A stretch of 17,598 nt of DNA from an uncultured bacterium. GTDB lineage: Bacteria; Schekmanbacteria; GWA2-38-11; J061. The notes under the pieces were generated by a model, which did not search any database, was not told where the DNA came from, and saw only the letters and a program-made list of their open reading frames with translations. Position numbers and translations under genes: made by a program. Positions 2,963-17,474 of the stretch are shown here, one piece after another; within the stretch, counting starts at the first letter, position 1, and each line of letters begins with the position of its first letter. Where the stretch lies: the NCBI GenBank assembly GCA_964549305.1, contig CAZJVM010000049.1, positions 1 through 17,598 of the forward strand. The letters are read 5' to 3'.

Positions 2963-4033
2963 ATGACCAGAAAAATTGTAAGAAAAGAGATTCTTTCTCT
3001 AAAGCCATACAAAGCGCAGGAAAGAGATTTCCCTGTTGTCCTTGATGCCAACGAAAGTCCCTTTACACTGCCCGACGGGATTAAAAAGGAAATTGTCGAA
3101 AATATAGATTCCATCGCGTTCAATCGTTATCCCGACCCTGAAGGAAAACTCCTCAAGACATCTCTCGCCGCTTTTCACGGTGTAAAACCTGAAAACATCG
3201 TTCTTGGCAACGGTTCCGACGAACTTATTCTATACCTTATATCAGCGTTTTCAAAAAGAGGATTCAGCACACTTTATCCTGTGCCCACATTCTCTATGTA
3301 CGGGATTATTTCCCAGTGTTTAGGCCAGAATAAAAAGGAAGTGCCTCTTGACTCAAATTTTGACATAGACATAGATACCTTTCTCGAGGCAGTGGAAAAA
3401 ATGAAGATATCGCTCATCTTTTTAAGCTATCCCAACAATCCCACAGGCAACTGTTTTTCAAAGAATAAAATAGTCAAAATTCTCAAATCATTCGAAGGCA
3501 TCGCGGTAGTTGACGAAGCATACGGCGATTTCTCCGGAAAAACATTCCTTCCTCTTCTGAAAAAATATAAAAACCTCATCATCACAAGAACATTTTCAAA
3601 AATCGGTTTGAGCAGTCTTCGCCTCGGATACCTTATTGCAAATCCTGAGGTGTGCGAAATCGTCGAAAAGGTCAGACTTCCTTTCAATGTTAATTCATTC
3701 TCTCAGGGATGCGGAGAGATTTTTCTCAAACAGAGGAAGAGCATCGATAAGCTCATAAACAAAATAGTTGAAGGAAGGGAATATCTCTATTCAGAGTTAA
3801 AAAAAATTAAGGAAATAACTCCCTTTGCTTCTGAGGCAAATTTCATACTCTTCAGAGTGCCGAAGAAATGCGGGTTTGTTCACGAAGAGCTGAAGAAAAA
3901 AGGAATACTTATAAGGAATTTAAACACTCCCGGATTGCTAAGGGATTGCCTGCGTGTAACTGTGGGGACTTCTTCAGAAAATCAGAGATTTATAAAAGCA
4001 ATAAAAGATATCATTTCGCAAATTCAGGTTTAA
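2963..4033 (+). CDS. hisC: Histidinol-phosphate aminotransferase (PLP class I/II)
   Basis: LDANESP, NRYPD, GNGSDELI, PTFSMY, PNNPTG, VVDEAY, RTFSK (PLP lysine), LRLGY, ANFIL, LRVTVG motifs. Confidence 0.92.
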   Translation: MTRKIVRKEILSLKPYKAQERDFPVVLDANESPFTLPDGIKKEIVENIDSIAFNRYPDPEGKLLKTSLAAFHGVKPENIVLGNGSDELILYLISAFSKRGFSTLYPVPTFSMYGIISQCLGQNKKEVPLDSNFDIDIDTFLEAVEKMKISLIFLSYPNNPTGNCFSKNKIVKILKSFEGIAVVDEAYGDFSGKTFLPLLKKYKNLIITRTFSKIGLSSLRLGYLIANPEVCEIVEKVRLPFNVNSFSQGCGEIFLKQRKSIDKLINKIVEGREYLYSELKKIKEITPFASEANFILFRVPKKCGFVHEELKKKGILIRNLNTPGLLRDCLRVTVGTSSENQRFIKAIKDIISQIQV

Positions 4034-4099
4034 ACAACTATCACTGCTGTCCAAAACAGATTTTTCATACTGTTATCGTCACATCTCTCCATCCCGCTT

Positions 4100-5509
4100 T
4101 TATTCCCCTATCCTGTGAAGCTTCATGAAATTCGTTTTTCCGCGTTTGGATAAGGGCGTGCTTGCAGTGATTACAATCCTGTCTCCCTTCTTAACTATTC
4201 TCTTTTTAAGAAGCATTTTATCAACTTCCTTTATCATCCTGTCGGTATCAGTTATTGCAGGCATATAAAGCGGGACGACTCCCCAGAATAGCGGAAGTCT
4301 TCTTAAGACGTCATTATCAGGCGTGAACACTACAATCGGGGACTGCGGTCTGAACTTTGATACAAGCCGTGCAGTAAATCCCGACTGGCTGAAAGCAACT
4401 ATGGCTTTCGCGCCTATATCCTCCCCTGCCCTGCACGCCGCATCTGCAACTGCCTCAGAATCCGATTGTCCGCGGATATAAGATGTGGCGCTTTTCCTGC
4501 TTTCCTCTGTTCTGGAAATAATTCTGGCCATTGTCTTAACCGCTTCAACAGGATACTTTCCTGCAGAAGTTTCCCCTGAAAGCATCAGCCCATCGCTAGA
4601 ATCGAGTACCGCATTTGCAACATCCGCCGCTTCCGCTCTTGTGGGACGGGAATGTTCAGTCATAGATTCAAGCATCTGCGTTGCGGTTATGACGATTTTC
4701 CCCATATTGTTTGCCTTCTCTATGAGCATCTTCTGAATAATCGGGACTTCCTCCTGCGCAACTTCAACTCCAAGGTCGCCGCGCGCAATCATTATGCCGT
4801 CGGAAACTCCAATAATTTCATCTATATTTTCAAGTGCTGAAGGTTTTTCTATTTTTGCTATCACGGGAATATTTTTCCCTCTTCTTTCAATTTCCTGTTT
4901 AACCACTGTTACATCGGAAGCGCGCATTACAAAGGACACAGCAACATAATCGACATTCATCCCGATTCCGAAATCAAGATCCTTTTTGTCCTTCGGGGTA
5001 AATGATTTAACTGATATTTTCATTCCCGGAAAATTCACACCTTTCCTGTCGCTTATCACCCCTCCTTCAACAACTTTCGCCTTCAATTCCTTTTTAGATT
5101 TTCCCGTAACCTTAAGAATAATCATCCCGTCATCAAGAAGTATCTTCTCACCGAGCGCCGCGTCTTTTAACAACCGGGGATATGAAAGATAGAGTTTTGT
5201 TTCGTCGCCGACCCCTTCGCCTGCAATCAGTGACAGGGTGCTTCCTTTTTTAAGATACGCTTTGCCGTCTCTGATAAGTCCTGTGCGAATTTTGATGCCC
5301 TGAAGATCCTGCAATATGGAAACTGTCTTCTTAAGCTTCTCAGACTGCTGTCTTACAAGCTCAATCATCTTTTTATGAAATTCATAGGTCCCGTGAGAAA
5401 AATTAAGACGGGCAACATCCATACCGCCTTTTATCATAAGGGAAACTATTTTTGGTGTTGATGATACAGGGCCAAGCGTGCAGATGATTTTCGCTTTCCT
5501 CTTATCCAT
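4100..5509 (-). CDS. pyk: Pyruvate kinase (Lys117-type, predicted K+-independent)
   Basis: KIICTLGP, ARLNFSHG, DLQGIKIRTG, IAKIE, MIARGDLGVE, TATQMLESM, RPTRAE, MLSGETS motifs. Confidence 0.98.
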   Translation of the reverse strand: MDKRKAKIICTLGPVSSTPKIVSLMIKGGMDVARLNFSHGTYEFHKKMIELVRQQSEKLKKTVSILQDLQGIKIRTGLIRDGKAYLKKGSTLSLIAGEGVGDETKLYLSYPRLLKDAALGEKILLDDGMIILKVTGKSKKELKAKVVEGGVISDRKGVNFPGMKISVKSFTPKDKKDLDFGIGMNVDYVAVSFVMRASDVTVVKQEIERRGKNIPVIAKIEKPSALENIDEIIGVSDGIMIARGDLGVEVAQEEVPIIQKMLIEKANNMGKIVITATQMLESMTEHSRPTRAEAADVANAVLDSSDGLMLSGETSAGKYPVEAVKTMARIISRTEESRKSATSYIRGQSDSEAVADAACRAGEDIGAKAIVAFSQSGFTARLVSKFRPQSPIVVFTPDNDVLRRLPLFWGVVPLYMPAITDTDRMIKEVDKMLLKKRIVKKGDRIVITASTPLSKRGKTNFMKLHRIGE

Positions 5510-5518
5510 AAATAATAC

Positions 5519-7012
5519 CTAAAAGATTGTCTGAAAAAATGTATATGCCATAACTGCTATAAGGATTATTCCTATAACATCGAGTACAGCGCCATACCGA
5601 ATCATCTTTCTTATTGGGACATAACCCGAACCATAGACAATTGCGTTAGGCGGTGTCGAGACAGGAAGCATAAACGCGAGACTTGTGGCAAAACAGGCGG
5701 CAAGGGCGGGCACTACGGGATTTATCCCCAGATTCTGCGATACTGCAATCGCCACGGGAATTATCATATTTGCCGATGCAGTATTAGATGTCGTTTCTGT
5801 AAGGATAACTGCCACAATGCAGAACAACACAGACACGCCAAGAAGACTCTTTACCTGCGTCGCCGAAATAAGATAATTCCCGAATGAAGACGCAAGCCCG
5901 GTCTTGAACATTATATTGCCGAGCGAAAGACCCCCTCCAAAAAGAAGAATAGTTCCCCAGTCAATCTTTGCCGCATCTTCCCACTTAAGGGTAAACTCCC
6001 TCTTCTTCCAGTTCACGGGCAGGAAAAAGAGAAGCGAAGTACCTATGAGCGCGGCAACCGCCTCCGGCATCACTGCCACAAGAAACCGCGCGAGGGGATG
6101 CGTCTTGCCAAGTATAACAACTGTTATTCCCGGAAAAATCCATAGAAACACAGTGACTAAAAAAGATATAAGAACATTCTTTTGAGCCTTTGTAAGCGAA
6201 TTCTTTCCGGAAAAACTGACGCCTATGGCATTGTCAATTGTGTTAAAACTTATACTACCCGATGAAATCCCGCGTTTCATGACAAAAAACAGAGCAATAA
6301 AAATAAGGATGGAAAGTGGAAGCGCCATATACATCCACTGGAAGAAATAAATTCTTATATCAAGATATTTTTCAATCATTCCAAGGGCTATCAGATTAGG
6401 AGGGGTCCCTATAGGAGTACTTATTCCACCTATTGAAGCGCTGAATGCCATCATTAACATAAGCGAATAGGCAAACTTTTTCTTTTCTGAAGAATTTTCA
6501 TCCATCGAAGTTATTATGCTTAACGCAATCGGCACCATCATCGCAGTTGTAGCCGTATTGCTGAGCCACATTGATAAAAACCAGACAACAAATCCGAATG
6601 CGAATAGCAGGCGTGCTTTTGATGAACCTACCCATCTGTTCCTTAAAATCACCGACGCGATTACTCGGTCAACACCCCGAACAGACATTGCCCGCGCGAT
6701 TATGAATGTCCCCATCATCAAAAAAATTATCGGATGGGCAAATGGCGCGAAAATCTCCTTCATTGAACCGACTGCAAGTATCACGCAAAGTGTAGGGCCG
6801 AGAAGCGCCGCGACAGGAATAGGGATTGCCTCGGTGACCCAGAATATTACTACTAAAACAACAACTGCGGCAAGACGACCCTGAATGGAATTACCCTGAA
6901 GATAATTTAAAATAATAATCAGAAAAAAAAGGAGAGGGCCTGCAATAAACCCGGAAAGCTTTCTTACTTTCTCGAATTTCTCTTCACCTTCAGATATTTT
7001 TGTTTCAGTCAT
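5519..7012 (-). CDS. DASS/SLC13 family sodium:dicarboxylate (or sulfate) symporter
   Basis: Many TM segments; WVTEAIP; two SNT motifs (MWLSNTATT, ETTSNTAS); GTPPN and STPPNAIVY. Confidence 0.93.
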   Translation of the reverse strand: MTETKISEGEEKFEKVRKLSGFIAGPLLFFLIIILNYLQGNSIQGRLAAVVVLVVIFWVTEAIPIPVAALLGPTLCVILAVGSMKEIFAPFAHPIIFLMMGTFIIARAMSVRGVDRVIASVILRNRWVGSSKARLLFAFGFVVWFLSMWLSNTATTAMMVPIALSIITSMDENSSEKKKFAYSLMLMMAFSASIGGISTPIGTPPNLIALGMIEKYLDIRIYFFQWMYMALPLSILIFIALFFVMKRGISSGSISFNTIDNAIGVSFSGKNSLTKAQKNVLISFLVTVFLWIFPGITVVILGKTHPLARFLVAVMPEAVAALIGTSLLFFLPVNWKKREFTLKWEDAAKIDWGTILLFGGGLSLGNIMFKTGLASSFGNYLISATQVKSLLGVSVLFCIVAVILTETTSNTASANMIIPVAIAVSQNLGINPVVPALAACFATSLAFMLPVSTPPNAIVYGSGYVPIRKMIRYGAVLDVIGIILIAVMAYTFFQTIF

Positions 7013-7015
7013 ATT

Positions 7016-9175
7016 TTAAACAAGCTCTCCTTCGAATTTTCCGGAATTTCTCACGAGTACCACACTGCCGAATCCCTCTGTCAATTTTTCAATGTGGCGC
7101 GCATATTCCATCTCCTCACCTGCCTCGGGAAGCATCAATCCAAGGAAAACCACATCGGCATCCGCTGATTCCTCCTTCATTGTTTCCTCGATGGATTTGT
7201 CCTTTTCACGCAAAATCACTTTTGCCTCGGCGGGAATTCTTGTTGAGGGGATAAGCTCTCCGAGACTCTTACTCATTTCTTTTTCCGACATCTCGCTTGT
7301 TACAATACTTTTCACTGTAATCGTGGAGCGCCTCCACTCCGAATTCAGCGAAAGCAGATAGGCAAGCAGAAGCATCATATCCCCGTTGTGCTGTTTACCC
7401 CGCCACCAGATATCAATTTTTTTATTCTTTTTTCCTATTTCGAGGTCTGATATGTCGGCAATGATAACTGATTTATCCATAGTGCTGACTCTTCGCATAA
7501 TCCTGAGATAAGAGGCAAGCCTTTCCGTGTAGTTGCTCCATCCGAACATGAGAGTGTTTGAAGCCAATCCCGCAATCCCCTGTGTCTGCATCATTGCTAT
7601 GATTCCTTCCTCAAAGTGCTCGACAACGTTGACCTCGCTGAATGCAATCAACTCTCCCCTGTCAAGAGTCTCGTCAATGACCGCTTCTTCCTTGTCGATT
7701 TTTTCCGCGGCATCATCGATTTTCCCCTCTATGATATTGCACACCGTAAGAATTCCCCTGTTGTGATTCAGCCACGAAGCGAAACGCACAAGACCTATCC
7801 GCTTTTTCACATCGCCCGCAAAGAGAAGGATGTGAGGCCTCCAGTTTCGGGGGTTTTCAGGCAATTCATTAAGGTTGATGAGAGAATATCTGGCGAGTGA
7901 AAGCCAAAGTCCCCTTCTCATATCGCCCCAGGTCGCCCTCATCTCCTTTCTTCTGAGCATTGCCCATACGGCGGTTTCAAAGATAATCGCAGTAAAGCAG
8001 GCAGTTTTGCTGATGAGAAACATTACCCAGAAGCAGGCGACTGCGCCGGCAATGGAAAGAAGCGAAGGAATATTAATTCTTGGCCTGTAGTAAGGGTCTG
8101 CGGCAAGTTTTTCAAGCCCTGCCACAAGATTTATCATCCCGTATGTCGTAAGGAAAAATATTGTCACAAAAGGTGCGACAGCATTCAAATCTCCCAGAAG
8201 CACGGAAGCGAGAGCTATAGATGAGGACAATATTATGGCAGGAATGGATTCTCCGCCTTTAAGCTGATATTTTGAAAAAAAAGAGGGAACGACTCTGTCG
8301 TTCGCAAGTGCCTGAAGAGTCCGGGGTGCGGCAAGTATGCTGCCGACGGCGGAAGAAAAAATTGCTCCCCACAAACCGGGCAGAACCAGAAAAGGCACGA
8401 TGGCAACCTTTGTCCACACCAGACTGTCTTCGAGAAGAGTTGTCTTATCGGCGCTGAAAGCAAGCGCCACCGGAACTGCCAAATAAAAAATGAATCCCGT
8501 AATCACGGCAAGAAGAGTACCCGCGGGGATGGACTTCTGAGGATTTTTCAAATCTCCCGACATGCTTACGCCCGCGAGAATTCCCGTAACTGCAGGAAAA
8601 AAAACGGCAAATACCGTCCAAAAATCAATTCCCGTTTCATAACCTCCCCACAGCACAGCACTTCCTACCTCAAAATTAGCTCCCGCGAAAAGGGATATAA
8701 AAGAGAGCGCAATGAAAACCATAACGGGTATCTGCATCTTCAGAGAAAGTTCTGCGCCCTTTACCGAAATAAGAGTGACGGCAAGGACAACTATTGCCGC
8801 AACGATTTCAATGGGCAATTCCGGAAATAATATCCTCAAAGATTCCGCGAATCCGAAAGAGTAGAGCGTAACGGATAACACCTGAGACAGATAAAGGGGA
8901 ATACCTATGGCGCCGCCTATTTCAAGCCCGAGACTCCTTGAAACGATGTAATACGCCCCTCCCACTCCCACTGACATATTTGTCGACACCGCGGAAACTG
9001 AAAGCGCCGTAACGAGGGATATTATATTTGCAAGCCCGATTATCGCCAGTGCCGGAAGAAGTCCTGCATTCCCCACAACCCATCCTACACGCAGATAGAG
9101 TATGACTCCCAGAATGGTAAGAATAGAAGGAGTGAAGACGCCGAGAAAAGTATTTAATTTCGGGGAAGAATTCAT
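7016..9175 (-). CDS. Prokaryotic cation-chloride cotransporter (SLC12/CCC family, APC superfamily)
   Basis: TM1 GVFTPSILTILGVILYLR, GGAYYIVSRSLGLEIGGAIG, TM6 FFPAVTGILAGVSMSGDLK, TM10 FFLTTY; soluble C-terminal domain with NWRPHIL and IDIWW motifs as in NKCC/KCC. Confidence 0.92.
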   Translation of the reverse strand: MNSSPKLNTFLGVFTPSILTILGVILYLRVGWVVGNAGLLPALAIIGLANIISLVTALSVSAVSTNMSVGVGGAYYIVSRSLGLEIGGAIGIPLYLSQVLSVTLYSFGFAESLRILFPELPIEIVAAIVVLAVTLISVKGAELSLKMQIPVMVFIALSFISLFAGANFEVGSAVLWGGYETGIDFWTVFAVFFPAVTGILAGVSMSGDLKNPQKSIPAGTLLAVITGFIFYLAVPVALAFSADKTTLLEDSLVWTKVAIVPFLVLPGLWGAIFSSAVGSILAAPRTLQALANDRVVPSFFSKYQLKGGESIPAIILSSSIALASVLLGDLNAVAPFVTIFFLTTYGMINLVAGLEKLAADPYYRPRINIPSLLSIAGAVACFWVMFLISKTACFTAIIFETAVWAMLRRKEMRATWGDMRRGLWLSLARYSLINLNELPENPRNWRPHILLFAGDVKKRIGLVRFASWLNHNRGILTVCNIIEGKIDDAAEKIDKEEAVIDETLDRGELIAFSEVNVVEHFEEGIIAMMQTQGIAGLASNTLMFGWSNYTERLASYLRIMRRVSTMDKSVIIADISDLEIGKKNKKIDIWWRGKQHNGDMMLLLAYLLSLNSEWRRSTITVKSIVTSEMSEKEMSKSLGELIPSTRIPAEAKVILREKDKSIEETMKEESADADVVFLGLMLPEAGEEMEYARHIEKLTEGFGSVVLVRNSGKFEGELV

Positions 9176-9204
9176 TTTAGCATCCTGAAGTCCGGGGAAA
9201 ATGC

Positions 9205-11418
9205 CTATTTATTATTTTCACCCAAAAAACTCTTTAACAGAGAAAGTATTTCACCGTGAGTCTGTACATTAAAATTCGCGTTTGACTGAACAATTCCAAC
9301 TCTGACGGAATTACCTGATCTCGGCATTACCTTAAAAAGCTCTTCATCGGTCCAGTTATCGCCTGTGGAAAAAATAAAATCATAGTCTTTATCTTTTATC
9401 CAGTGAAGGCAGGCAGTTCCTTTGTTAACACCGGAATTTATTACCGCTATGACCTTATACCCCCTGATTACCTGCACATCGAGGTTTGCCGTAAACTCCA
9501 CAAGATCGTCGAGAAGCTCTTTTGCCCGTATGAGACTCAGCTCGGTATCCGCTTTTCTGTAATAAAGAGACGCTGAATATTCTTTTTCTTCCACAAAGGA
9601 ACCCGGAAGCCTTCCTCCATAGGTTTTAAGAATAGGCACAATCTGTTTTTTCCAGTCGTTTGTAAGCGGTTTTATGACTCTCCACTCGCCGTCAAGTCCC
9701 TTTATCCACGAACCGTTTTCGGCAACAAGGGCTATTTTAAGCTTACCGAACCACTTTTCCAGAAATCGCCTCTCACTGCCGCTTAAAATGACAACCATAT
9801 TCCTGTCATCTTTAACGAGTTTTTTAATCATTTTCAAAAGCGCCCGGGAAGGTTCGACCTTCTGAGGATGACCCGGAAAAGGAACGAGAGTTCCCTCATA
9901 ATCGAGTATAAGCAAACGTCTTTTCGCTTTCCTGTATTTTGAAATGAGACTCTTCTCCGCTCTTGAATTGAGCAGGCGGGCATTGAATTGCCTTTGTTCG
10001 CTTTTAAGGAGAAGTAACTGCTGCATAAAATCTTCCGCCCACCTCATTACGTTATAACGCTTTATTCTTTCCTGCATAACACTGTTTGCCTCAATCTGCT
10101 CTTCAAGGGGCATCTCAAGCGCGGTTTTCACCGCGTCGGCAATCTCTTCAATGTTATTGGGATTGATGATTACAGCCTCACCAAGCTCTTTTGCGGTACC
10201 TGCCATTTCACTTAGGATCAGGACTCCGTCCCCCTTCTTTCTCGACGCGATATATTCCTTGGCAATCAGATTCATTCCGTCCCGCAAAGGCGTTATCATA
10301 GCCACGTCACTTACGCTGTAAAGGGCAACGAGCGAATCAAAGGGCAGTGACCTGTACTGATAAACTATTGGAATCCAGTTCATTCTACCGAACCTTCCGT
10401 TGATTTTTCCCACCATTTCATCTATCTGTTTTTTCATCTGTCTGTACTGGTCAACCCCCGTTCTCGAAGGAACTACAATTATTACAAGGACTACTTTTCT
10501 GTGCCACTGTGGATTATCAACAAGAAATTTCTCGTAGGCAAGAAGGCGATTGATGATTCCCTTTGTATAATCGAGACGGTCAATGGAAAGAACAACTTTC
10601 TGCTTGAAAAGCATTTTATTCAGTTTCTGCCTGCCCTCTTTCACGCTTTTTTCAGACAGGGCATTGTGATACTTGTCATAATCGATTCCCATGGGGAATG
10701 TTTCCGCTTTTATAATCCTGTTGCCATACACAATTTTTCCCATATTGTTCTCGTGGCCCAAAAGACGAAGGACGCATCTCAAAAAGTACTGCGTATAATC
10801 GTGAATATGAAAACCGATAATATCCGCGCCGAGAAGTCCCTCGAGAATCTCCTGCCTCCATTTTCCCGGAAGCAGGCGGAATATTTCAAATGCGGGAAAA
10901 GGAATATGAAGAAAGAAACCGATACTCAATCCGGGAAACTTCTTCCTGAGCATATTCGGCAGAAGCATTAAATGATAATCGTGTATCCAAACTATATCGT
11001 CAGGTTTGATTACCTCCGCCACTGAATCATAGAAAAGCTTATTGACAAGTTTGTAATGTTCCCAGTATTCCTTGTCAAATACCGTATAAGACGGAAAGTA
11101 GTGAAAAAGCGGCCATATGGTATTATTGCAGAAACCGTAATAATATTTATCCATCGACTCTTCGGGAATAAAAACGGGATAAGCGTTTAGCTTGGGAAGT
11201 TCTTTCGTTTTAAGGAGTTTCTTAGTTTTTGCATCGGGCTCTATATCGGGCCAGCCTATCCAAAGATATTCGGGGCCTTTTTTACCTGAACCTTTTATGG
11301 AATCAAGATAAGCGGTAAGCCCCGAAACAAGACCTCCCGGACTCATCCTGAGGTTGAGCTTGTCATCTTTTTTTTCAACTATTACGGGCAACCTGTTTGA
11401 AACAACTATCAGCCTCAT
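9205..11418 (-). CDS. Fused trehalose-6-phosphate synthase (GT20) / trehalose-6-phosphate phosphatase (HAD-IIB) protein; phosphatase motifs degenerate
   Basis: GT20 motifs VSNRLP, GGL, WPLFHY, HDYHL, FLHIPFP, DRLDYTKG, PSR, DGMNL.AKE, LSE. The C-terminal ~240 aa HAD domain has DYEGTL, SGS, AENG, NKG, GDNWTDE. AAGGA lies 10 nt upstream of the ATG. Confidence 0.95.
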   Translation of the reverse strand: MRLIVVSNRLPVIVEKKDDKLNLRMSPGGLVSGLTAYLDSIKGSGKKGPEYLWIGWPDIEPDAKTKKLLKTKELPKLNAYPVFIPEESMDKYYYGFCNNTIWPLFHYFPSYTVFDKEYWEHYKLVNKLFYDSVAEVIKPDDIVWIHDYHLMLLPNMLRKKFPGLSIGFFLHIPFPAFEIFRLLPGKWRQEILEGLLGADIIGFHIHDYTQYFLRCVLRLLGHENNMGKIVYGNRIIKAETFPMGIDYDKYHNALSEKSVKEGRQKLNKMLFKQKVVLSIDRLDYTKGIINRLLAYEKFLVDNPQWHRKVVLVIIVVPSRTGVDQYRQMKKQIDEMVGKINGRFGRMNWIPIVYQYRSLPFDSLVALYSVSDVAMITPLRDGMNLIAKEYIASRKKGDGVLILSEMAGTAKELGEAVIINPNNIEEIADAVKTALEMPLEEQIEANSVMQERIKRYNVMRWAEDFMQQLLLLKSEQRQFNARLLNSRAEKSLISKYRKAKRRLLILDYEGTLVPFPGHPQKVEPSRALLKMIKKLVKDDRNMVVILSGSERRFLEKWFGKLKIALVAENGSWIKGLDGEWRVIKPLTNDWKKQIVPILKTYGGRLPGSFVEEKEYSASLYYRKADTELSLIRAKELLDDLVEFTANLDVQVIRGYKVIAVINSGVNKGTACLHWIKDKDYDFIFSTGDNWTDEELFKVMPRSGNSVRVGIVQSNANFNVQTHGEILSLLKSFLGENNK

Positions 11419-11521
11419 CTTTCACAAATCCTTTTTTTTCTCTCACCAAAGTATTCTGCGTAATGATTACAGGCGGAATATTAACTGATAACAGATAAAT
11501 AAAGCAGTAAAAATATTTTTT

Positions 11522-11551
11522 ATTATACCGATTTTTTGCCTTTCAGGTCAA
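11522..11551 (-). promoter_or_regulatory. sigma70-type promoter of the TPSP-CCC-DASS-pyk operon (TTGACC-N18-TATAAT)
   Basis: Minus strand: TTGACC at 11551-11546 and perfect TATAAT at 11527-11522, about 100 nt upstream of the TPSP start. Confidence 0.7.
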
Positions 11552-11622
11552 AGAATTGTAGGCAATGACCTTTTTAGATTTGTTTATCATCCTTTCCCTT
11601 TCAAATCATCCTTCACTCATAA

Positions 11623-11643
11623 GCGAAAAAAATATTTTTTCGC
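11623..11643. promoter_or_regulatory. Inverted repeat GCGAAAAAA-ATA-TTTTTTCGC, candidate TF site
   Basis: 9-bp perfect arms with a 3-nt spacer between the two divergent promoters, 28 nt upstream of the tldD -35. Confidence 0.45.
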
Positions 11644-11671
11644 ATTATATTCATAACAGGTTACAGATGAG

Positions 11672-11700
11672 TTGACAGAAAAATATCTAACGAATAATAT
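11672..11700 (+). promoter_or_regulatory. sigma70-type promoter of the TldD-like gene (TTGACA-N17-TAATAT)
   Basis: Perfect -35 at 11672-11677, 17-nt spacer, -10 TAATAT at 11695-11700. GGAG SD at 11729-11732 is 8 nt before ATG 11741. Confidence 0.75.
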
Positions 11701-11740
11701 CTATGGACTTAACTTATCAGAAATTAACGGAGAATGAAAA

Positions 11741-13501
11741 ATGAAAAGAAGCATCAAAAAGCTGTCAACAGCCATTATACTGATTAGCATTTCTCTTTTT
11801 ACGGGAGGATGGTTTCAGGCATTGGAAGAAAAAAAGCCGGAAAAGTTAATTAATATAATGAAAGATGAGCTAAACCGTTCTATGGAAGAGCTCAAACTTC
11901 CGGATTTCGAATCACCCTATTTCATCAGCTATCTGCTCAGGGAATCAAAACTTTTTTCAATATCGGCTAAAAACGGAGCGCTCTATTCTAATAATAGCAG
12001 AACCGCGCGCTCCATATACTGCGAAACCCGCGTGGGCGATTACAGTTTTGACAGTTCAAATATTGGAGCACCGGATTACGGATTCACAAACAAATATTCA
12101 TACGGAGGCGGATATGGTTTGATTGCCGCACCGATTGAAGACAACGAAACAGCCCTAAAAACATCTCTCTGGCTGCTCACAGACAGCAAATACAAGCGCG
12201 CTCTTTCTTCCTATCTCAAGAAGAAAAGCGAAAAGATATTCAAGGTTGATGACAAGGACGAAGAAGAACTTGACGATTTCTCAAAGGAAGATCCTGACAT
12301 ATTCATATCAGAAAAAAAAGAACTGTCCTACAATGAGAAAAAGATTGCGAACAACCTTCGTAAGGCAAGCAAAATATTCAACGGCTTTCCCGAAATAAGA
12401 AGCAGTGGTGTCGAGGCGGAAGGCAGAGTGCTTTCCCGCTACTATATAAACTCGGAAGGGCAAAAGGTTTTCACATCCTATCCTCTTTATATGTCCAGCG
12501 TATCAGCGAGTATGATTACGGAAAAAGGGGAAGGGATTTCCAATGCCGACGTCCACTACGATACTGACTCTGACAGCATCTTTGACAGTAAAACACTTGA
12601 AAAAAGCATCTCCAGGGTAGTAGATGAACTCAAAATGCTCAGCGGTGCGAGCAAGATGGACCCCTATGCGGGACCTGCGATACTTTCGCCTAAAGTGACC
12701 GGAGTTTTTTTCCACGAAGCGATAGGACACCGCTTAGAGGGTGAAAGGCAGAGGACGGAAAATGAGGGACAGACATTCAAGGGGAAGACAGGCAAAAAAA
12801 TAATTCCTGATTTTTTATCCGTTGAAGATGACCCTACTTTGAAAAGCTTTCAGGGAATTAACCTTAACGGATTCTATGAATTTGATGATGAAGGCGTACG
12901 CGCCCAAAGAGTTGAACTCATAAAAGGCGGAATATTGAAGAATTTTCTCCTTTCACGCACTCCAATCAAGGGCTTCAACAACTCAAACGGGCACGGCAGG
13001 TCAAGCGCTCAGAGAAAACCGATGGGGCGAATGGCAAATCTAATCGTTAAATCCTCAAAAGAATATTCTGAAGAAGAACTTAAAAAAATGCTCATAGCGG
13101 AAGCAAAGAAGAAGGGAAAAAAATTCGGACTGATAATAAAGGATATAGAAGGCGGAGGCGAAACGAATACGGGAAGACGCTCATTTCAGGCATTCAGAAG
13201 TACACCCAAGTTCGTCTATAAGGTCGATGTGGAAACGGGCAAGGAAGAACTTGTAAGAGGCGTGGAAATTGTGGGTACTCCCATAATCAGCATAAACAGA
13301 ATTATCGCCACGGGAAATGATTATAAAATATTCAACGGTTACTGCGGTGCGGAATCAGGTTCCGTACCTGTGTCAACTGTTGCGCCAAGCGTACTCATAG
13401 AAGAAATAGAGCTTCAGAGAAAACCGATGAAAAAGACGCGTCCGCCGATAATAGGGAAACCGTCAGCGTCGGAAAATATCAATATGGGGAAAAAGGATTA
13501 A
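11741..13501 (+). CDS. TldD/PmbA family zinc metalloprotease (TldD-like catalytic subunit) with N-terminal signal peptide
   Basis: FFHEAIGHRLE (HExxxH, residues 325-330), DDPTL, FDDEGV, SNGHGR, RM.NL, and C-terminal YCGAESG (Cys535). N-terminus MKRSIKKLSTAIILISISLFTGGWFQA resembles a Sec signal. Confidence 0.9.
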   Translation: MKRSIKKLSTAIILISISLFTGGWFQALEEKKPEKLINIMKDELNRSMEELKLPDFESPYFISYLLRESKLFSISAKNGALYSNNSRTARSIYCETRVGDYSFDSSNIGAPDYGFTNKYSYGGGYGLIAAPIEDNETALKTSLWLLTDSKYKRALSSYLKKKSEKIFKVDDKDEEELDDFSKEDPDIFISEKKELSYNEKKIANNLRKASKIFNGFPEIRSSGVEAEGRVLSRYYINSEGQKVFTSYPLYMSSVSASMITEKGEGISNADVHYDTDSDSIFDSKTLEKSISRVVDELKMLSGASKMDPYAGPAILSPKVTGVFFHEAIGHRLEGERQRTENEGQTFKGKTGKKIIPDFLSVEDDPTLKSFQGINLNGFYEFDDEGVRAQRVELIKGGILKNFLLSRTPIKGFNNSNGHGRSSAQRKPMGRMANLIVKSSKEYSEEELKKMLIAEAKKKGKKFGLIIKDIEGGGETNTGRRSFQAFRSTPKFVYKVDVETGKEELVRGVEIVGTPIISINRIIATGNDYKIFNGYCGAESGSVPVSTVAPSVLIEEIELQRKPMKKTRPPIIGKPSASENINMGKKD

Positions 13502-13516
13502 GGAACATTTTTCTCA

Positions 13517-13738
13517 TTATGTATTTACCATAAATTCAACAATAGTATTTTTTTTAAGAAGAGAAGTTATTTTTGAAAGGTCGTCTTCATAAACCTTTAA
13601 TGCTACGCCGCACCTTGATTCGACACCTTTCGGTTTCGGGACAATCATATTTGAAATCTTGTTTTTTTTGAGAAGATCCTCAGCTTTCATAGTGAGGTGA
13701 GTGGAGTCAAAAACAAGAAGTAAAGTTTTTCTTACCAC
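13517..13738 (-). CDS. DUF3343 family small protein (putative Se/S carrier-like)
   Basis: 73 aa with F.STH...KAE..LK...I....P.P......CG.AL pattern typical of DUF3343. GTG start overlaps the upstream stop (GTGGTAA). Confidence 0.8.
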   Translation of the reverse strand: MVRKTLLLVFDSTHLTMKAEDLLKKNKISNMIVPKPKGVESRCGVALKVYEDDLSKITSLLKKNTIVEFMVNT

Positions 13739-15027
13739 AACTTTCTCTCTCTTGCTTCTTTTTCAAGTTCTTCTTTAAAGTCGGGATGAGAAATGTCAAT
13801 AAGGTCTTTTGCCCTTTGCTTCATACTTTTACCGTGAAGATTGACCGTTCCGAATTCCGTCGCGACCCAGTGCACGTCACCTCTCGAGGTTACAACTCCC
13901 GCGCCGGGATCGAGTTTGGGAACTATCCTCGAGACTTTACCTTTCCTTGCAGTTGACGGAAGAGCAATAATGGCTTTACCGTTTTCCGAGCGAGCCGCGC
14001 CCCTTATAAAATCAACCTGCCCGCCTATTCCGCTAAACTGCATCGTTCCCATACTGTCAGCGCAAACCTGCCCCGTAATATCCACCTGTATCGCAGAATT
14101 AATCGCAACCATCTTTTCGTTTTGCGCTATTATAAAAGGGTCATTCGTGTAATCTGAAGGATGAAGCTCGATTAACGGATTGTTGTCCACAAACTTATAT
14201 AGTTTTTCGCTTCCCATAAGAAAACTTGAAACTATTTTTCCCTGATGTATGGATTTCTTTTCGTTATTGATTACTCCGCACTCAACAAGTTCCACTACGC
14301 CGTCTGAAAACATCTCCGTGTGCACGCCAAGATCTTTTTTACCTGTCAGATTAGCGAGAGTCGCGTTAGGTATGCCGCCGATTCCCATCTGAAGAGTAGA
14401 ACCGTCTTCGATAAGCGCGGCAACATTCTTGCCTATTTTTTTGCTTACATCATCCATCCCCGGTTCAGGAAGGGTAAGAAGGGGCGCGGAAGACTCAACC
14501 ACCGCCGCAAGCTTGCTCACGTGGATGAAGCTGTTTCCCAAAGTTCTCGGCACCCTGTCATTCACTTCCGCGATTACAACCGCAGCATTCTCCGCCGCCG
14601 GCTTGACTATGTCAACAGATACGCCGAAGGAGCAGAATCCGTGCGAATCGGGCGGTGATACCTGTATTAGCGCCACATCTATGGGAAGAGCGCCATTTTT
14701 GAAAAGGCGTGGTATTTCAGATAAAAATATAGGCGTAAATTCCGCCCTTCCATCATTGACCGCTTCTCTTACATTTGCGCCCACAAAGAAAGCATTGTGC
14801 CTGAACGCCCCTTCATATTTCGAATCAGTATAATCGGCAATACCCAATGTGAGAAGACTAACGATTTCAACATTTTTAAGGTCTCCCGCGACGACATTGA
14901 GCGCTTTCACCAGTTCCTGCGGTTCGGCACATCCGGAGCCTATTATTATTCTGCTGTTTGATTTAATTAAGCTGACCGCTTTTTCCGGTGTAGTTATTTT
15001 TTCGCGATAGATTACAGGCCATTCCAT
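13732..15027 (-). CDS. Family I CoA-transferase (acetyl-CoA hydrolase/transferase family, 4-hydroxybutyrate CoA-transferase Cat2/AbfT-like)
   Basis: VSPPD.HG.CSFGVS, TLQMGIGGIPNA, LGVHTEMFSDG (catalytic Glu), INSAIQVD.TGQV.ADS, SGIGGQVDF.RGA, SRIVP.L, VATEFG, I.HPDF. Confidence 0.93.
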   Translation of the reverse strand: MEWPVIYREKITTPEKAVSLIKSNSRIIIGSGCAEPQELVKALNVVAGDLKNVEIVSLLTLGIADYTDSKYEGAFRHNAFFVGANVREAVNDGRAEFTPIFLSEIPRLFKNGALPIDVALIQVSPPDSHGFCSFGVSVDIVKPAAENAAVVIAEVNDRVPRTLGNSFIHVSKLAAVVESSAPLLTLPEPGMDDVSKKIGKNVAALIEDGSTLQMGIGGIPNATLANLTGKKDLGVHTEMFSDGVVELVECGVINNEKKSIHQGKIVSSFLMGSEKLYKFVDNNPLIELHPSDYTNDPFIIAQNEKMVAINSAIQVDITGQVCADSMGTMQFSGIGGQVDFIRGAARSENGKAIIALPSTARKGKVSRIVPKLDPGAGVVTSRGDVHWVATEFGTVNLHGKSMKQRAKDLIDISHPDFKEELEKEARERKLW

Positions 15028-16139
15028 TATTTGCCTGCCTCGATTGGGGAATATTCACGGTTAAAAAGTTCGGCGAGAACCTTCATGGTTATTCTTCCCC
15101 TATGTGTATAAGTGCCACCGCCAAGAGACGGCATTTCTTTCAGATACCCTTCTCCCCTTTTCCCAACATCTATAAGATAAGGAAAAAGAGCGTGGCTCAA
15201 TGCCTGCGATGATGCCTTTGCCGCAAGTGAAGGAACATTAGGTACACAGTAATGAATGACTCCCGAATGTTCGAATACGGGATTGCTGAGTGTTGTGGGT
15301 CTGCTTGTTTCCACACATCCTCCCTGGTCGATAGATAAATCAATTGCCACAGAACCCTTCCTCATCGATTTTATCATCTCCTCCGAAACCACAACGGGAC
15401 TCTTCGCGCCTTTAAGATAGACTGCGCCTATGACAACATCAGCATTTTTTATCCACCCGGCAATTGCGTGTGAGCTTGAAAAACCCGTTGCAACCTGTTT
15501 TCCCACTGCCTCCTCCACGAGGCGGAGTTTTTCCACATTCCTGTCAATTATGAGCACTCGCGCTCCCATTGCCGATGCCGTGCGCGCGGCGCTTCTTCCC
15601 ACGCTTCCCGCACCTATGATGAGGAGATTAGCCGGTTCGATTCCCGGCGCGCCTCCAAGCAAAATTCCGCGACCTCCCCTGTTTGTCTGAAGATAGTTTG
15701 CCGCAATCTGCACGCTGAGAGCGCCTGCGATTTCACCTGTTGCCGCCTCGATTATCAGCTCTCCTCTATCGTCTGAAATAACTTCAAAACCGATTGTGGT
15801 TATTTCCCGCTCTATAAGAAGGTCGAGATATTTTTCGCTTGCAACAGCAAGATGCTGAAAGGACATTATGGTGGCTTTTCTTTTTATCATTGAAAGCGCT
15901 TCAAGGGGAACAGGTGTCACAGAAACAATTATTTCCCCGCGTTTGTATATCTCTTCTTCGGTATAGGCAATCTTCGCTCCCTTCAGCTCATAATCCCTGT
16001 CACTGAATCCGCTTGCGATGCCCGCGCCTTTGAGGAAATAAACATCATTGCCTTCTGATACAATGCTCGATACCGCACCGGGAGTAAGGGGAACTCTCAG
16101 GTCTTCGCTTTTTTTGTCATATACAATTGATATATCCAT
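15027..16139 (-). CDS. Alanine dehydrogenase-like protein (AlaDh/PNT family), divergent substrate site
   Basis: RVPLTP, GAG..SGFSD.DY, HLA, EIAG, GGRGILLGG.PG, Rossmann GAGSVG, DLSIDQGGCVETSRPTT, HYCVPN. The canonical KVKEP is replaced by SVTPV. Stop overlaps the next start (TAATG). Confidence 0.88.
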   Translation of the reverse strand: MDISIVYDKKSEDLRVPLTPGAVSSIVSEGNDVYFLKGAGIASGFSDRDYELKGAKIAYTEEEIYKRGEIIVSVTPVPLEALSMIKRKATIMSFQHLAVASEKYLDLLIEREITTIGFEVISDDRGELIIEAATGEIAGALSVQIAANYLQTNRGGRGILLGGAPGIEPANLLIIGAGSVGRSAARTASAMGARVLIIDRNVEKLRLVEEAVGKQVATGFSSSHAIAGWIKNADVVIGAVYLKGAKSPVVVSEEMIKSMRKGSVAIDLSIDQGGCVETSRPTTLSNPVFEHSGVIHYCVPNVPSLAAKASSQALSHALFPYLIDVGKRGEGYLKEMPSLGGGTYTHRGRITMKVLAELFNREYSPIEAGK

Positions 16140-16147
16140 AAGAAAGG

Positions 16148-16176
16148 ATTATAAATGCGGACAACTTTATGGTCAA
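16148..16176 (-). promoter_or_regulatory. sigma70-type promoter of the ald-like operon (TTGACC-N17-TATAAT), probably leaderless
   Basis: TTGACC at 16176-16171, TATAAT at 16153-16148, then only 8 nt (CCTTTCTT) before ATG 16139; no SD. Confidence 0.75.
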
Positions 16177-16412: not shown

Positions 16413-17474
16413 ATGGAATACAGACGTCTCGGACGCACGGGGCTTGAAGTTTCGGCAATTTCTTTCGGCGGACTCCCAACCACATTTATGCCTAAGGAAG
16501 AAGTTATTCCCCTCATAAACGCTGCCATCGATTCAGGGATAAACTACTTTGACCTTGACGAGGGACCTGCACAGTTCAGTGATGAAAATGCTTACAGGGA
16601 CAGCGCGGCGAAGATGGGAGAAGTTCTGAAGGAAAGAAGAGATGAAGTTTATGTCGGCGTCAAGACAATGAAGAAAAAAAAATCTGAAGTCCTTGAAGAT
16701 ATAGACAAGGCGCTCAACCTCATATTCAAGGGAACTTCAAGAGAGGTGATAGATATATTTCATCTTGCCTTCGTGGATTATGATGAAAGTCTTAATGAAA
16801 TTTCGGGACCTGACGGCGGTATCGCCGCATTGGAGGAAGCGAAGAAGCAGGGACTCATAGACTACACCCTTGTGGCGGGACATAACTATCCCGTGCTTGT
16901 AAAGGCAATCGAAACAGGCGCATTTGATGCCGTTGAATTTCCCTTTAATATAATTGAGTGCGATGTTGAGGAAAAGCTGATTCCCCTTGCCCAAAAACTT
17001 GATATTGGCACAATTGTTATGAAACCATTCGGAGGCGGACAATTCGGTGAAATTGCCACGGCACAAATGAAATGGCTTTATTCAAAACCGGTATCCTGCA
17101 TAATTCCCGGCACAAAGAATGTAGAAGAGTTGAAAAAGAATATTGCCGTTGCCCAATCGGGAGAAGCACTTACAGATGAGGAAAACTCAAAGCTTCTTGA
17201 ATTCAAGGAAAGAATGGGAAACCGCTACTGCCACAGATGCGGTTACTGCCTGCCCTGCCCTCAGGGACTGCGAATTTTCGGGCTTTTGGATATTCTCAAT
17301 GCCGGTGTACTGAGCTATGATAAGAAAAAAATCGCCTATCTTCAGGCAATCGATAAGGGAACTCTCGAGCCAGCGTCAAACTGCGTTGCCTGCAAGGAAT
17401 GCGAATCCCGATGTCCCTATGACCTCCCTATTGCAGATATGATGAAGGAAATGGTGGAGAAGTTCGGAGTTTAG
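16413..17474 (+). CDS. Aldo/keto reductase family protein with C-terminal 2x[4Fe-4S] domain (COG1453-like)
   Basis: YRRLGRTGLEVSAISFGG, GINYFD, MKPFGGG, IPG. Cys motifs CHRCGYCLPCP and CVACKECESRCP. AAGGAG SD at 16398-16403. Confidence 0.92.
   Translation: MEYRRLGRTGLEVSAISFGGLPTTFMPKEEVIPLINAAIDSGINYFDLDEGPAQFSDENAYRDSAAKMGEVLKERRDEVYVGVKTMKKKKSEVLEDIDKALNLIFKGTSREVIDIFHLAFVDYDESLNEISGPDGGIAALEEAKKQGLIDYTLVAGHNYPVLVKAIETGAFDAVEFPFNIIECDVEEKLIPLAQKLDIGTIVMKPFGGGQFGEIATAQMKWLYSKPVSCIIPGTKNVEELKKNIAVAQSGEALTDEENSKLLEFKERMGNRYCHRCGYCLPCPQGLRIFGLLDILNAGVLSYDKKKIAYLQAIDKGTLEPASNCVACKECESRCPYDLPIADMMKEMVEKFGV

Follow-up and report, generated by a model that had tools for sequence, protein, structure and literature searches.

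Osmoadaptation classically comprises two phases, in which ion uptake is followed by a compatible solute. The closest described operon is msc-gt-tpsp of Thermoproteus tenax, in which a fusion of trehalose-6-phosphate synthase and phosphatase (TPSP) shares a transcript with an osmotic-homeostasis membrane protein; it is confined to Thermoproteus and Pyrobaculum and has been interpreted as a unit for stress response (PMC3634074). For the prokaryotic cation-chloride cotransporters (CCC), the literature at hand offers the structure of a Methanosarcina C-terminal domain and calls the role in prokaryotes unknown (PMC4301019, PMC2412884), and NKCC genes have been proposed to aid the accumulation of K+ and Cl- in Salinibacter (PMC2412884). 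In open-access papers and preprints, no measured transport for any prokaryotic CCC was found, nor any published link between a TPSP and a CCC or between trehalose and Schekmanbacteria genes of this kind. Here, a 17,598-nucleotide stretch of an uncultured bacterium of the Schekmanbacteria lineage (contig CAZJVM010000049.1, assembly GCA_964549305.1; the whole stretch is hereafter called the window) was analysed for four consecutive minus-strand genes encoding a TPSP, a CCC, a carrier of the DASS family and a pyruvate kinase (Pyk). With a probability of roughly 0.55, these are regarded as a real four-gene transcription unit of a narrow lineage, whose co-expression would have a role under salt or osmotic stress.

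The genes for TPSP (9205-11418, 737 aa), CCC (7016-9175, 719 aa), DASS (5519-7012, 497 aa) and Pyk (pyk, 4100-5509, 469 aa) were located by a six-frame listing of open reading frames (ORFs) and follow one another on the minus strand at spacings of 29, 3 and 9 nt. Pfam and NCBIfam returned for all four the same families that had been named in an earlier reading of the letters alone (hereafter the sequence-only reading), and the ORF coordinates agree with the gaps given there. Upstream of the TPSP gene, a sigma-70-type promoter-like site was located at 11522..11551 (minus), with the -35 element TTGACC (11551-11546), an 18-nt spacer and the -10 element TATAAT (11527-11522). With 11 of 12 consensus positions it is the best match of the region, and the near-consensus promoter described earlier was thereby recovered. 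On both strands of the entire window just two matches of 11/12 were obtained, each directly upstream of a minus-strand gene group, and the chance of a site of at least 11/12 in the 322-nt intergenic region was estimated at about 0.012 (5000 Markov-1 simulations); the promoter and terminator scans used here are consensus matches only. Downstream of the site lies a predicted 5' leader of about 100 nt (11419..11521, minus), whose AAGGA ribosome-binding site precedes the ATG of the TPSP gene by 12 nt. A single long, imperfectly paired hairpin was predicted for the leader (-20 kcal/mol, z -2.5, equally good in 3 of 200 shuffles), and it extends to the ribosome-binding region. An Rfam search at E<=1 gave no match in the whole window, the leader included, by which a riboswitch or other known RNA was ruled out in the leader and elsewhere in the window.

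A ribosome-binding site was found upstream of each start, that of the CCC gene (AGGA) lying 8 nt before its ATG and next to the end of the TPSP gene, that of the DASS gene (GAAGGAG) within the 3' end of the CCC gene, and that of pyk being weak. The terminator scan detected no terminator-like site within the three gaps and the TPSP-CCC junction folded no better than its shuffles (z +0.68), as expected from the earlier remark that no hairpin is apparent between the genes; at 29, 3 and 9 nt the gaps are too short to accommodate such signals. Across positions 3800-11900, neither the promoter-like sites (19 versus 14.7 +/- 3.7 in shuffles) nor the terminator-like sites (13 versus 8.4 +/- 2.8) were above the shuffled level. 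The very short gaps, together with the ribosome-binding sites embedded in upstream genes, suggest selection for coupled expression; with one promoter and short gaps, co-transcription is the simplest reading, as had been proposed, and the sigma-70-type promoter would most likely drive all four genes. Seven ORFs of 83-156 aa that run antisense to the operon gave no Pfam match at E<=0.01, and genes on that strand were rejected. At the downstream end of the operon, the 66 nt that separate the convergent pyk and hisC genes (4034..4099, no strand) contain no canonical intrinsic terminator, and the region 3990-4110 folded with a z of -1.78 (9 of 200 shuffles equally good).

The TPSP matched NF011071 (bifunctional TPS/TPP) with 967 bits against a cut-off of 634. 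Its GT20 trehalose-6-phosphate synthase domain (aa ~1-470, 10009..11418, minus) scored 519 bits with PF00982 and 568.4 against 564.85 with TIGR02400, and its full-length structure matches were fungal Tps1 (424 bits) and E. coli OtsA (282 bits). For the comparison within the family, the window TPSP and its two relatives of ~82% identity were defined as the clade and the 117 other homologues as the reference set. In the synthase half, 11 of the 150 columns conserved at 95% or more in the reference set deviate, mostly conservatively, and R9, D147, H171, R281, K286, D380 and E388, which we take to be the catalytic residues of E. coli OtsA, are invariant in a 25-sequence TPSP alignment that includes the window protein. 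The synthase domain is apparently intact. Mycobacterial OtsA, to go by the title of a paper (PMC6879718), is reportedly under allosteric regulation by 2-oxoglutarate and 2-phosphoglycerate; regulation of this kind ties trehalose-phosphate synthesis to lower glycolysis and could bear on the pairing with pyk.

The other half of the protein, a HAD-IIB domain resembling trehalose-6-phosphate phosphatase (TPP, also T6PP; aa ~495-737, 9205..9936, minus), was aligned to the Tps2 phosphatase structures 5DXL, 5DX9 and 5DXI and is remodelled. The remark of the sequence-only reading that this domain is apparently inactive has a basis, in that motif I reads LDYEGTL instead of DxDGT, and does so in this clade only. 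Among 120 TPSP sequences, motif I is DYDGT in 115, DYEGT in three (the window protein and the two close relatives), DYYGT in one and DYNGT in one, and the window TPSP lacks the HAD motif I DxDxT with Asp+2 as the general acid/base. In all, 14 of the 61 conserved columns of the TPP-like half deviate in one or more clade members and eight in all three (D508E at Asp+2, R548S, H568N, W618L, H619Y, E658A, D688N and Y703N/T), and the difference in deviation between the phosphatase and synthase halves gave p = 0.0037 by Fisher's test. R660, which is Arg in 96 of the 117 reference homologues, is Ile or Thr in the clade. Among the T6PP signatures outside the four HAD motifs, SGR is replaced by SGS, AEHG by AENG, WHYR by LYYR, ExR by AxI and GDDxTDE by GDNwTDE, as placed by the alignment to the structures; SGR, AEHG, WHYR and ExR are invariant in the TPSP family and in fungal Tps2. 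The nucleophile D506 is retained, as are S546, K666, D687, D691 and E692.

In FastTree phylogenies with midpoint rooting, the clade was monophyletic with support of 1.0 for both halves. Its stem in the phosphatase half (0.665) was the longest of 238 branches, and that in the synthase half measured 0.261, with 10 branches longer. Within the clade, identity of the TPP-like half was 0.78-0.82, as compared with 0.80 +/- 0.034 in 145 canonical pairs of equal synthase-domain divergence. The long stem combined with normal within-clade identity points to a single episode of rapid change, after which constraint was normal, and the domain is not decaying. Its phosphatase activity may be reduced or lost. 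Asp+2 is the general acid/base of HAD phosphatases, and in Brugia T6PP the substitution D215A lowered kcat from 24 to ~0.0004 per s (PMC4081830), which supports the wording "apparently inactive" of the sequence-only reading as a lead. The replacement of Asp+2 by Glu is a conservative one, and inactivity predicted from sequence is unreliable in this superfamily; SPP-like_7942, a cyanobacterial HAD-IIB protein that lacks key substrate-binding residues, still dephosphorylates sucrose 6-phosphate (S6P; bioRxiv 10.64898/2026.09.11.751015). Elsewhere among the 120 TPSP sequences, Asp+2 was lost independently in P0221 and P0234 (DYYGT and DYNGT), which suggests that degenerate phosphatase halves may arise repeatedly in bacterial TPSPs.

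The CCC has the domain plan of its family, with 170 bits for PF00324 (AA_permease) and 64 bits for PF03522 (SLC12); the prokaryotic CCC C-terminal domain PF21554 scored 20.4 bits, under its cut-off of 27. Against solved structures overall (range 243-299 bits including NKCC), the KCCs scored ~298 bits and NKCC1 243 bits. With the segment of transmembrane helix 8 (TM8) alone, NKCC1 was the best solved match, in a gapless alignment. According to the alignment, A271, S274 and S275 correspond to A610, S613 and S614 of the Na+ site of hNKCC1 and show no variation among 20 prokaryotic CCCs; at the K+ site, Y75 (TM3), P194 and T197 (TM6), aligned to KCC3, are likewise kept and invariant among the 20 (sites of hNKCC1, with the Na+ site in TM8, as given in PMC7889885). 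Only 5 of 176 conserved columns deviate. The retention of NKCC-type residues at both the Na+ and the K+ site makes the label Na-K-Cl cotransporter, under which the gene had first been described, a reasonable one, and the window CCC may reasonably be regarded as an NKCC-like Na+/K+/Cl- cotransporter.

In carriers of the DASS type, the SNT hairpin-tip motifs have a role in Na+ and substrate binding. The window DASS matched TIGR00785 with 290 bits (cut-off 198.6), its closest solved relative was VcINDY (4F35, 199 bits), and both SNT motifs were aligned and kept; it is most likely an INDY-type Na+-coupled symporter for a carboxylate or another anion. The Pyk matched TIGR01064 with 551 bits against a cut-off of 306 and consists of the PK barrel and the C-domain with no extra C-terminal domain; its best solved match was the M. 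tuberculosis enzyme (MtbPYK, 5WRP, 426 bits), and 14 of 193 conserved columns deviate. Its motif LQGIKIRT supplies Lys117, Leu113 and Gln114, the signature of K+-independent Pyks (PMC8835810, PMC4284704, PMC5501398), with Thr at position 120 and not Leu, Ile or Val, and the enzyme is assigned by this signature to the ordinary K+-independent branch. A scheme in which K+ taken up by the CCC feeds a K+-dependent Pyk was ruled out by the same three residues. Characterised Pyks of the Lys117 branch are activated by AMP or sugar monophosphates, such as ribose 5-phosphate (PMC5501398) or glucose 6-phosphate (G6P) and AMP (PMC5719368). The window Pyk retains Gly457 and the F-S-Q-S-G-x-T loop for the effector phosphate, and it likely has a phosphorylated effector. 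At the G6P site of MtbPYK, R382 is replaced by Leu and R385 by Lys, W398 of the adenine pocket by Asp, and H345, R348 and T349 of the G6P loop by Arg, Ser and Asp, respectively; the MtbPYK G6P site was rejected as a pocket for trehalose 6-phosphate (T6P), since its residues are not conserved in the window Pyk.

The best matches of the window CCC were P0002 (81%) and P0003 (80%; the latter named Na-K-Cl cotransporter of a Candidatus Schekmanbacteria bacterium), and those of the TPSP were P0123 and P0122 (82% each). The TPSP and CCC relatives lie on contigs that are equally sized pairwise (20196 and 18944 nt), from which we infer that the two genes share a contig in both cases (2 of 2), and the best Pyk match, P0242 (86%), is likewise on a contig of 20196 nt (linkage of pyk in 1 of 2). 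By these matching contig sizes, linkage outside the window would be limited to two relatives of ~80% identity; beyond them, comparison by eye found no contig size common to the best-120 TPSP and best-120 CCC lists. For the wider comparison, CCC homologues were collected (7983 of 8000 scored candidates at E<=0.001) and 20 of them were aligned, and the alignment was used to search genome contigs. Of the 601 matched stretches, 579 encode a CCC relative, and the best 80 loci (39-53% identical) were analysed, spanning Acidobacteriota, Actinomycetota, Myxococcota, Desulfobacterota, Bacteroidota, Cyanobacteria, Gemmatimonadota and others. Their flanks amounted to 1.126 Mb, with at least 2.3 kb upstream in 66 of 80, at least 3 kb downstream in 62 of 80 and at least 3 kb on both sides in 48 of 80. 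Up to four genes per side were clustered into neighbour families (499 ORFs) after two loci without an intact CCC ORF (L016 and L024) had been dropped.

The results of this survey, together with several features of the locus itself, weigh against an integrated osmotic unit. When the flanks of the best 80 CCC loci were searched by tblastn (E<=1e-3), a TPSP was found at 0/80, a Pyk at 0/80 and a DASS at 1/80, and the largest family of shared CCC neighbours was present in 7 of 78 loci at mixed positions, by which a recurrent CCC neighbour in prokaryotes was also rejected. Given the missing linkage and the unconserved neighbours, comparative genomics lends no functional support beyond the immediate clade. 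Among the matches listed, no Pyk relative of at least 59% identity is on the 18944-nt contig. Within the unit, a terminator-like hairpin lies inside the CCC gene at 8303-8287 (minus), with a 7-bp stem containing 4 G-C pairs and a 3-nt loop, with CCTCTTTTTT after it; the TPSP gene contains a promoter-like site that matches at 10/12 positions (10322-10295), and no regulator gene was found in the 17.6-kb window. Two weaker terminator-like hairpins were seen at 8602-8619 and 8162-8180, and all three are in T-rich membrane-coding DNA. The only DASS-bearing locus of the best 80, L058, is from a Gemmatimonadota metagenome-assembled genome (MAG), where a DASS gene (8340-9677, minus; 37% identical to the window DASS) stands in divergent orientation ~320 nt from the CCC gene (10001-12106, plus); it is absent at two other Gemmatimonadota loci. 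The sequence-only reading had proposed a survey of CCC and TPSP neighbourhoods and had held that unconserved adjacency in relatives would speak against it; with the counts given above, adjacency is not conserved among distant relatives, and a conserved module is not supported. The operon is a lineage-specific arrangement and not a widespread new system.

The same counts fit a different account, in which unrelated co-oriented genes were packed together by chance in a compact genome, pyk and DASS are mere passengers and no integrated osmotic function exists. This is possible, on the doubtful side. Besides the flanks of the 80 loci, in which a single DASS gene was the sole hit, the lack of a conserved CCC neighbourhood and the absence of further common contig sizes, it draws on the canonical state of Pyk, CCC and the TPS domain, whose deviating columns are few. 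It is harder to square with gaps of a few nucleotides and ribosome-binding sites placed inside upstream genes, with the TPSP and CCC genes on one contig in both ~80% relatives by the size match, and with a remodelled TPP-like domain confined to proteins that share a contig with a CCC (3 of 3). On the preferred reading of a stress-related transcription unit, a Na+ gradient would drive K+ and Cl- uptake by the CCC plus organic-anion uptake by the DASS carrier under salt or osmotic stress, T6P or trehalose would be synthesized alongside, and adjustment at the lower end of glycolysis would fall to Pyk. Because CCC and DASS are both of Na+-coupled types, the two could plausibly be driven by one and the same Na+ gradient, and the pairing of TPSP with CCC fits the two-phase course of osmoadaptation, from ion uptake to compatible solute. 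DASS and pyk might also serve as a carbon supply, imported C4-dicarboxylates needing a route through phosphoenolpyruvate to pyruvate. Of the salt/osmotic module suggested by the sequence-only reading, the genes, the gaps, the promoter and the NKCC-like CCC have thus stood, and conservation across the 80 CCC loci has not.

The remodelled phosphatase half admits accounts of its own, and whether it has been slowed or re-specialised is a separate sub-question. It might act on another sugar phosphate or on a protein, with the operon still making trehalose, which is conceivable but rather unlikely: the phosphoryl-transfer core (D506, S546, K666, D687 and D691) is kept and the changes cluster in the SGR, AEHG, WHYR and ExR motifs, and changes in the HAD cap or active site can shift specificity, SPP-like_7942 having gained activity on 3-phosphoglycerate (10.64898/2026.09.11.751015), but no invariant residue of the synthase half has changed, and T6P would therefore still be the product that needs a phosphatase. 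A quite unlikely proposal is that the phosphatase half is dead and T6P is released to act allosterically on either Pyk or the CCC's cytosolic domain, or that the TPP-like domain is itself a T6P sensor. The clade-only replacement of Asp+2 and of seven further residues conserved at 95% or more in the 117 homologues would agree with it, as would the collapse of kcat in the Brugia Asp+2-to-Ala mutant (PMC4081830), the normal constraint on the domain after the burst on its stem, the place of Pyk in the Lys117 branch with its AMP- and sugar-monophosphate-activated members (PMC5501398, PMC5719368) and the existence of catalytically dead plant TPP-like proteins described as T6P sensors (10.64898/2026.09.11.751015). 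Several points are against it: Glu may still serve as the general acid, and neither the nucleophile Asp nor the Ser and Lys motifs nor the Mg-binding Asps have been lost; SPP-like_7942 still acts on S6P despite its losses; accumulation of T6P is toxic in M. tuberculosis (PMC11046441); Leu and Lys stand in the window Pyk for R382 and R385 of MtbPYK, and the G6P-loop residues differ; and a separate otsB could lie elsewhere in the genome, of which 17.6 kb are in view. T6P signalling to Pyk or CCC, as raised by the sequence-only reading, is therefore speculation. Its fullest form would be a bacterial counterpart of plant-style T6P signalling, in which the phosphatase-like half binds T6P or holds a phosphoryl group and T6P or the domain tunes CCC and Pyk, coupling ion uptake to carbon flux under salt; we consider it very improbable.

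In the neighbouring DNA, the second 11/12 promoter match (TTGACC-N17-TATAAT, 16141-16176, minus) lies just upstream of an alanine dehydrogenase gene (15027-16139), and the stop of that gene overlaps with the beginning of a butyryl-CoA:acetate CoA-transferase-like gene (13732-15027), both on the minus strand; the pair is probably a second operon. At one of the 80 CCC loci (L033, an Acidimicrobiia MAG), the CCC gene (10001-12148, plus) is divergent to a pair of alanine dehydrogenase (42%) and CoA-transferase (52%) genes (6141-8518, minus); the same pair stands 2.3 kb upstream of the four-gene operon in the window, and with 1 of 80 loci this could be chance. Divergent from the operon, a gene at 11741-13501 (plus) encodes a protein of 586 aa, in which PF19289 matches only the C-terminal third of the PmbA/TldD fold and for which the NCBIfam TldD scores are far under their cut-offs; near this gene are a 10/12 promoter-like site (11672-11700) and the hairpin GCGAAAAAAATATTTTTTCGC (11623-11643). 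A gene at 16413-17474 (plus, 353 aa) encodes an aldo/keto reductase domain fused to a C-terminal 4Fe-4S dicluster domain.

The promoter-linked combination of a CCC with trehalose-phosphate synthesis gives a concrete hypothesis for the role of a prokaryotic CCC, namely salt-induced uptake of K+ and Cl- in one small lineage. Its reach is limited, as the cluster is not widespread and is represented by three sequences from uncultured organisms. T6P is toxic in mycobacteria and acts as a signal in plants, and with an inactive phosphatase-like domain, if that is what it is, the organism would have to either put up with T6P or exploit it. With NKCC1 (SLC12A2) and the M. acetivorans CCC, the window CCC shares the domain plan, and the A/S/S residues of the Na+ site and the Tyr/Pro/Thr residues of the K+ site are kept; unlike eukaryotic NKCC1, it is without the N-terminal regulatory region, its identity to animal CCCs is at most ~40%, and KCC scores higher. 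With MtbPYK and V. cholerae PykII, which are K+-independent and activated by AMP or sugar monophosphates, the window Pyk shares the signature and the phosphate loop, whereas the G6P-site arginines and W398 of MtbPYK are not kept, and it is unusual for a pyk to close a transporter operon.

The rebuilding of the TPSP phosphatase half in one burst, with conservation thereafter, mirrors the dead SPP domain of cyanobacterial sucrose-phosphate synthase (SPS) and the plant TPS/TPP-like proteins. Plant class I TPS1 likewise carries a synthase fused to a phosphatase-like domain. In SPS-SPP of Synechocystis PCC 6803 and in the plant TPP-like proteins, catalytic residues have been lost and the HAD-IIB domain retained (10.64898/2026.09.11.751015). 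Compared with the Synechocystis protein, the change in the window TPSP is milder (Asp+2 to Glu, with the nucleophile kept) and occurs in a clade of bacterial TPSPs known from three sequences. With T. tenax msc-gt-tpsp, the locus has in common that a clade-restricted operon joins a TPSP to an osmoregulatory membrane protein. The partners differ, being a glycosyltransferase activator and a mechanosensitive channel in T. tenax and an NKCC-like CCC, a DASS carrier and a Pyk in the window, among whose 12 proteins Pfam and NCBIfam detected neither a glycosyltransferase activator nor an MscS-type channel. The phosphatase is the active half of the T. tenax protein, whereas the phosphatase-like half is the remodelled one here. 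Trehalose stress operons restricted to a clade are a known kind, as are synthases fused to a degenerate phosphatase-like domain, and the window holds a variant of these.

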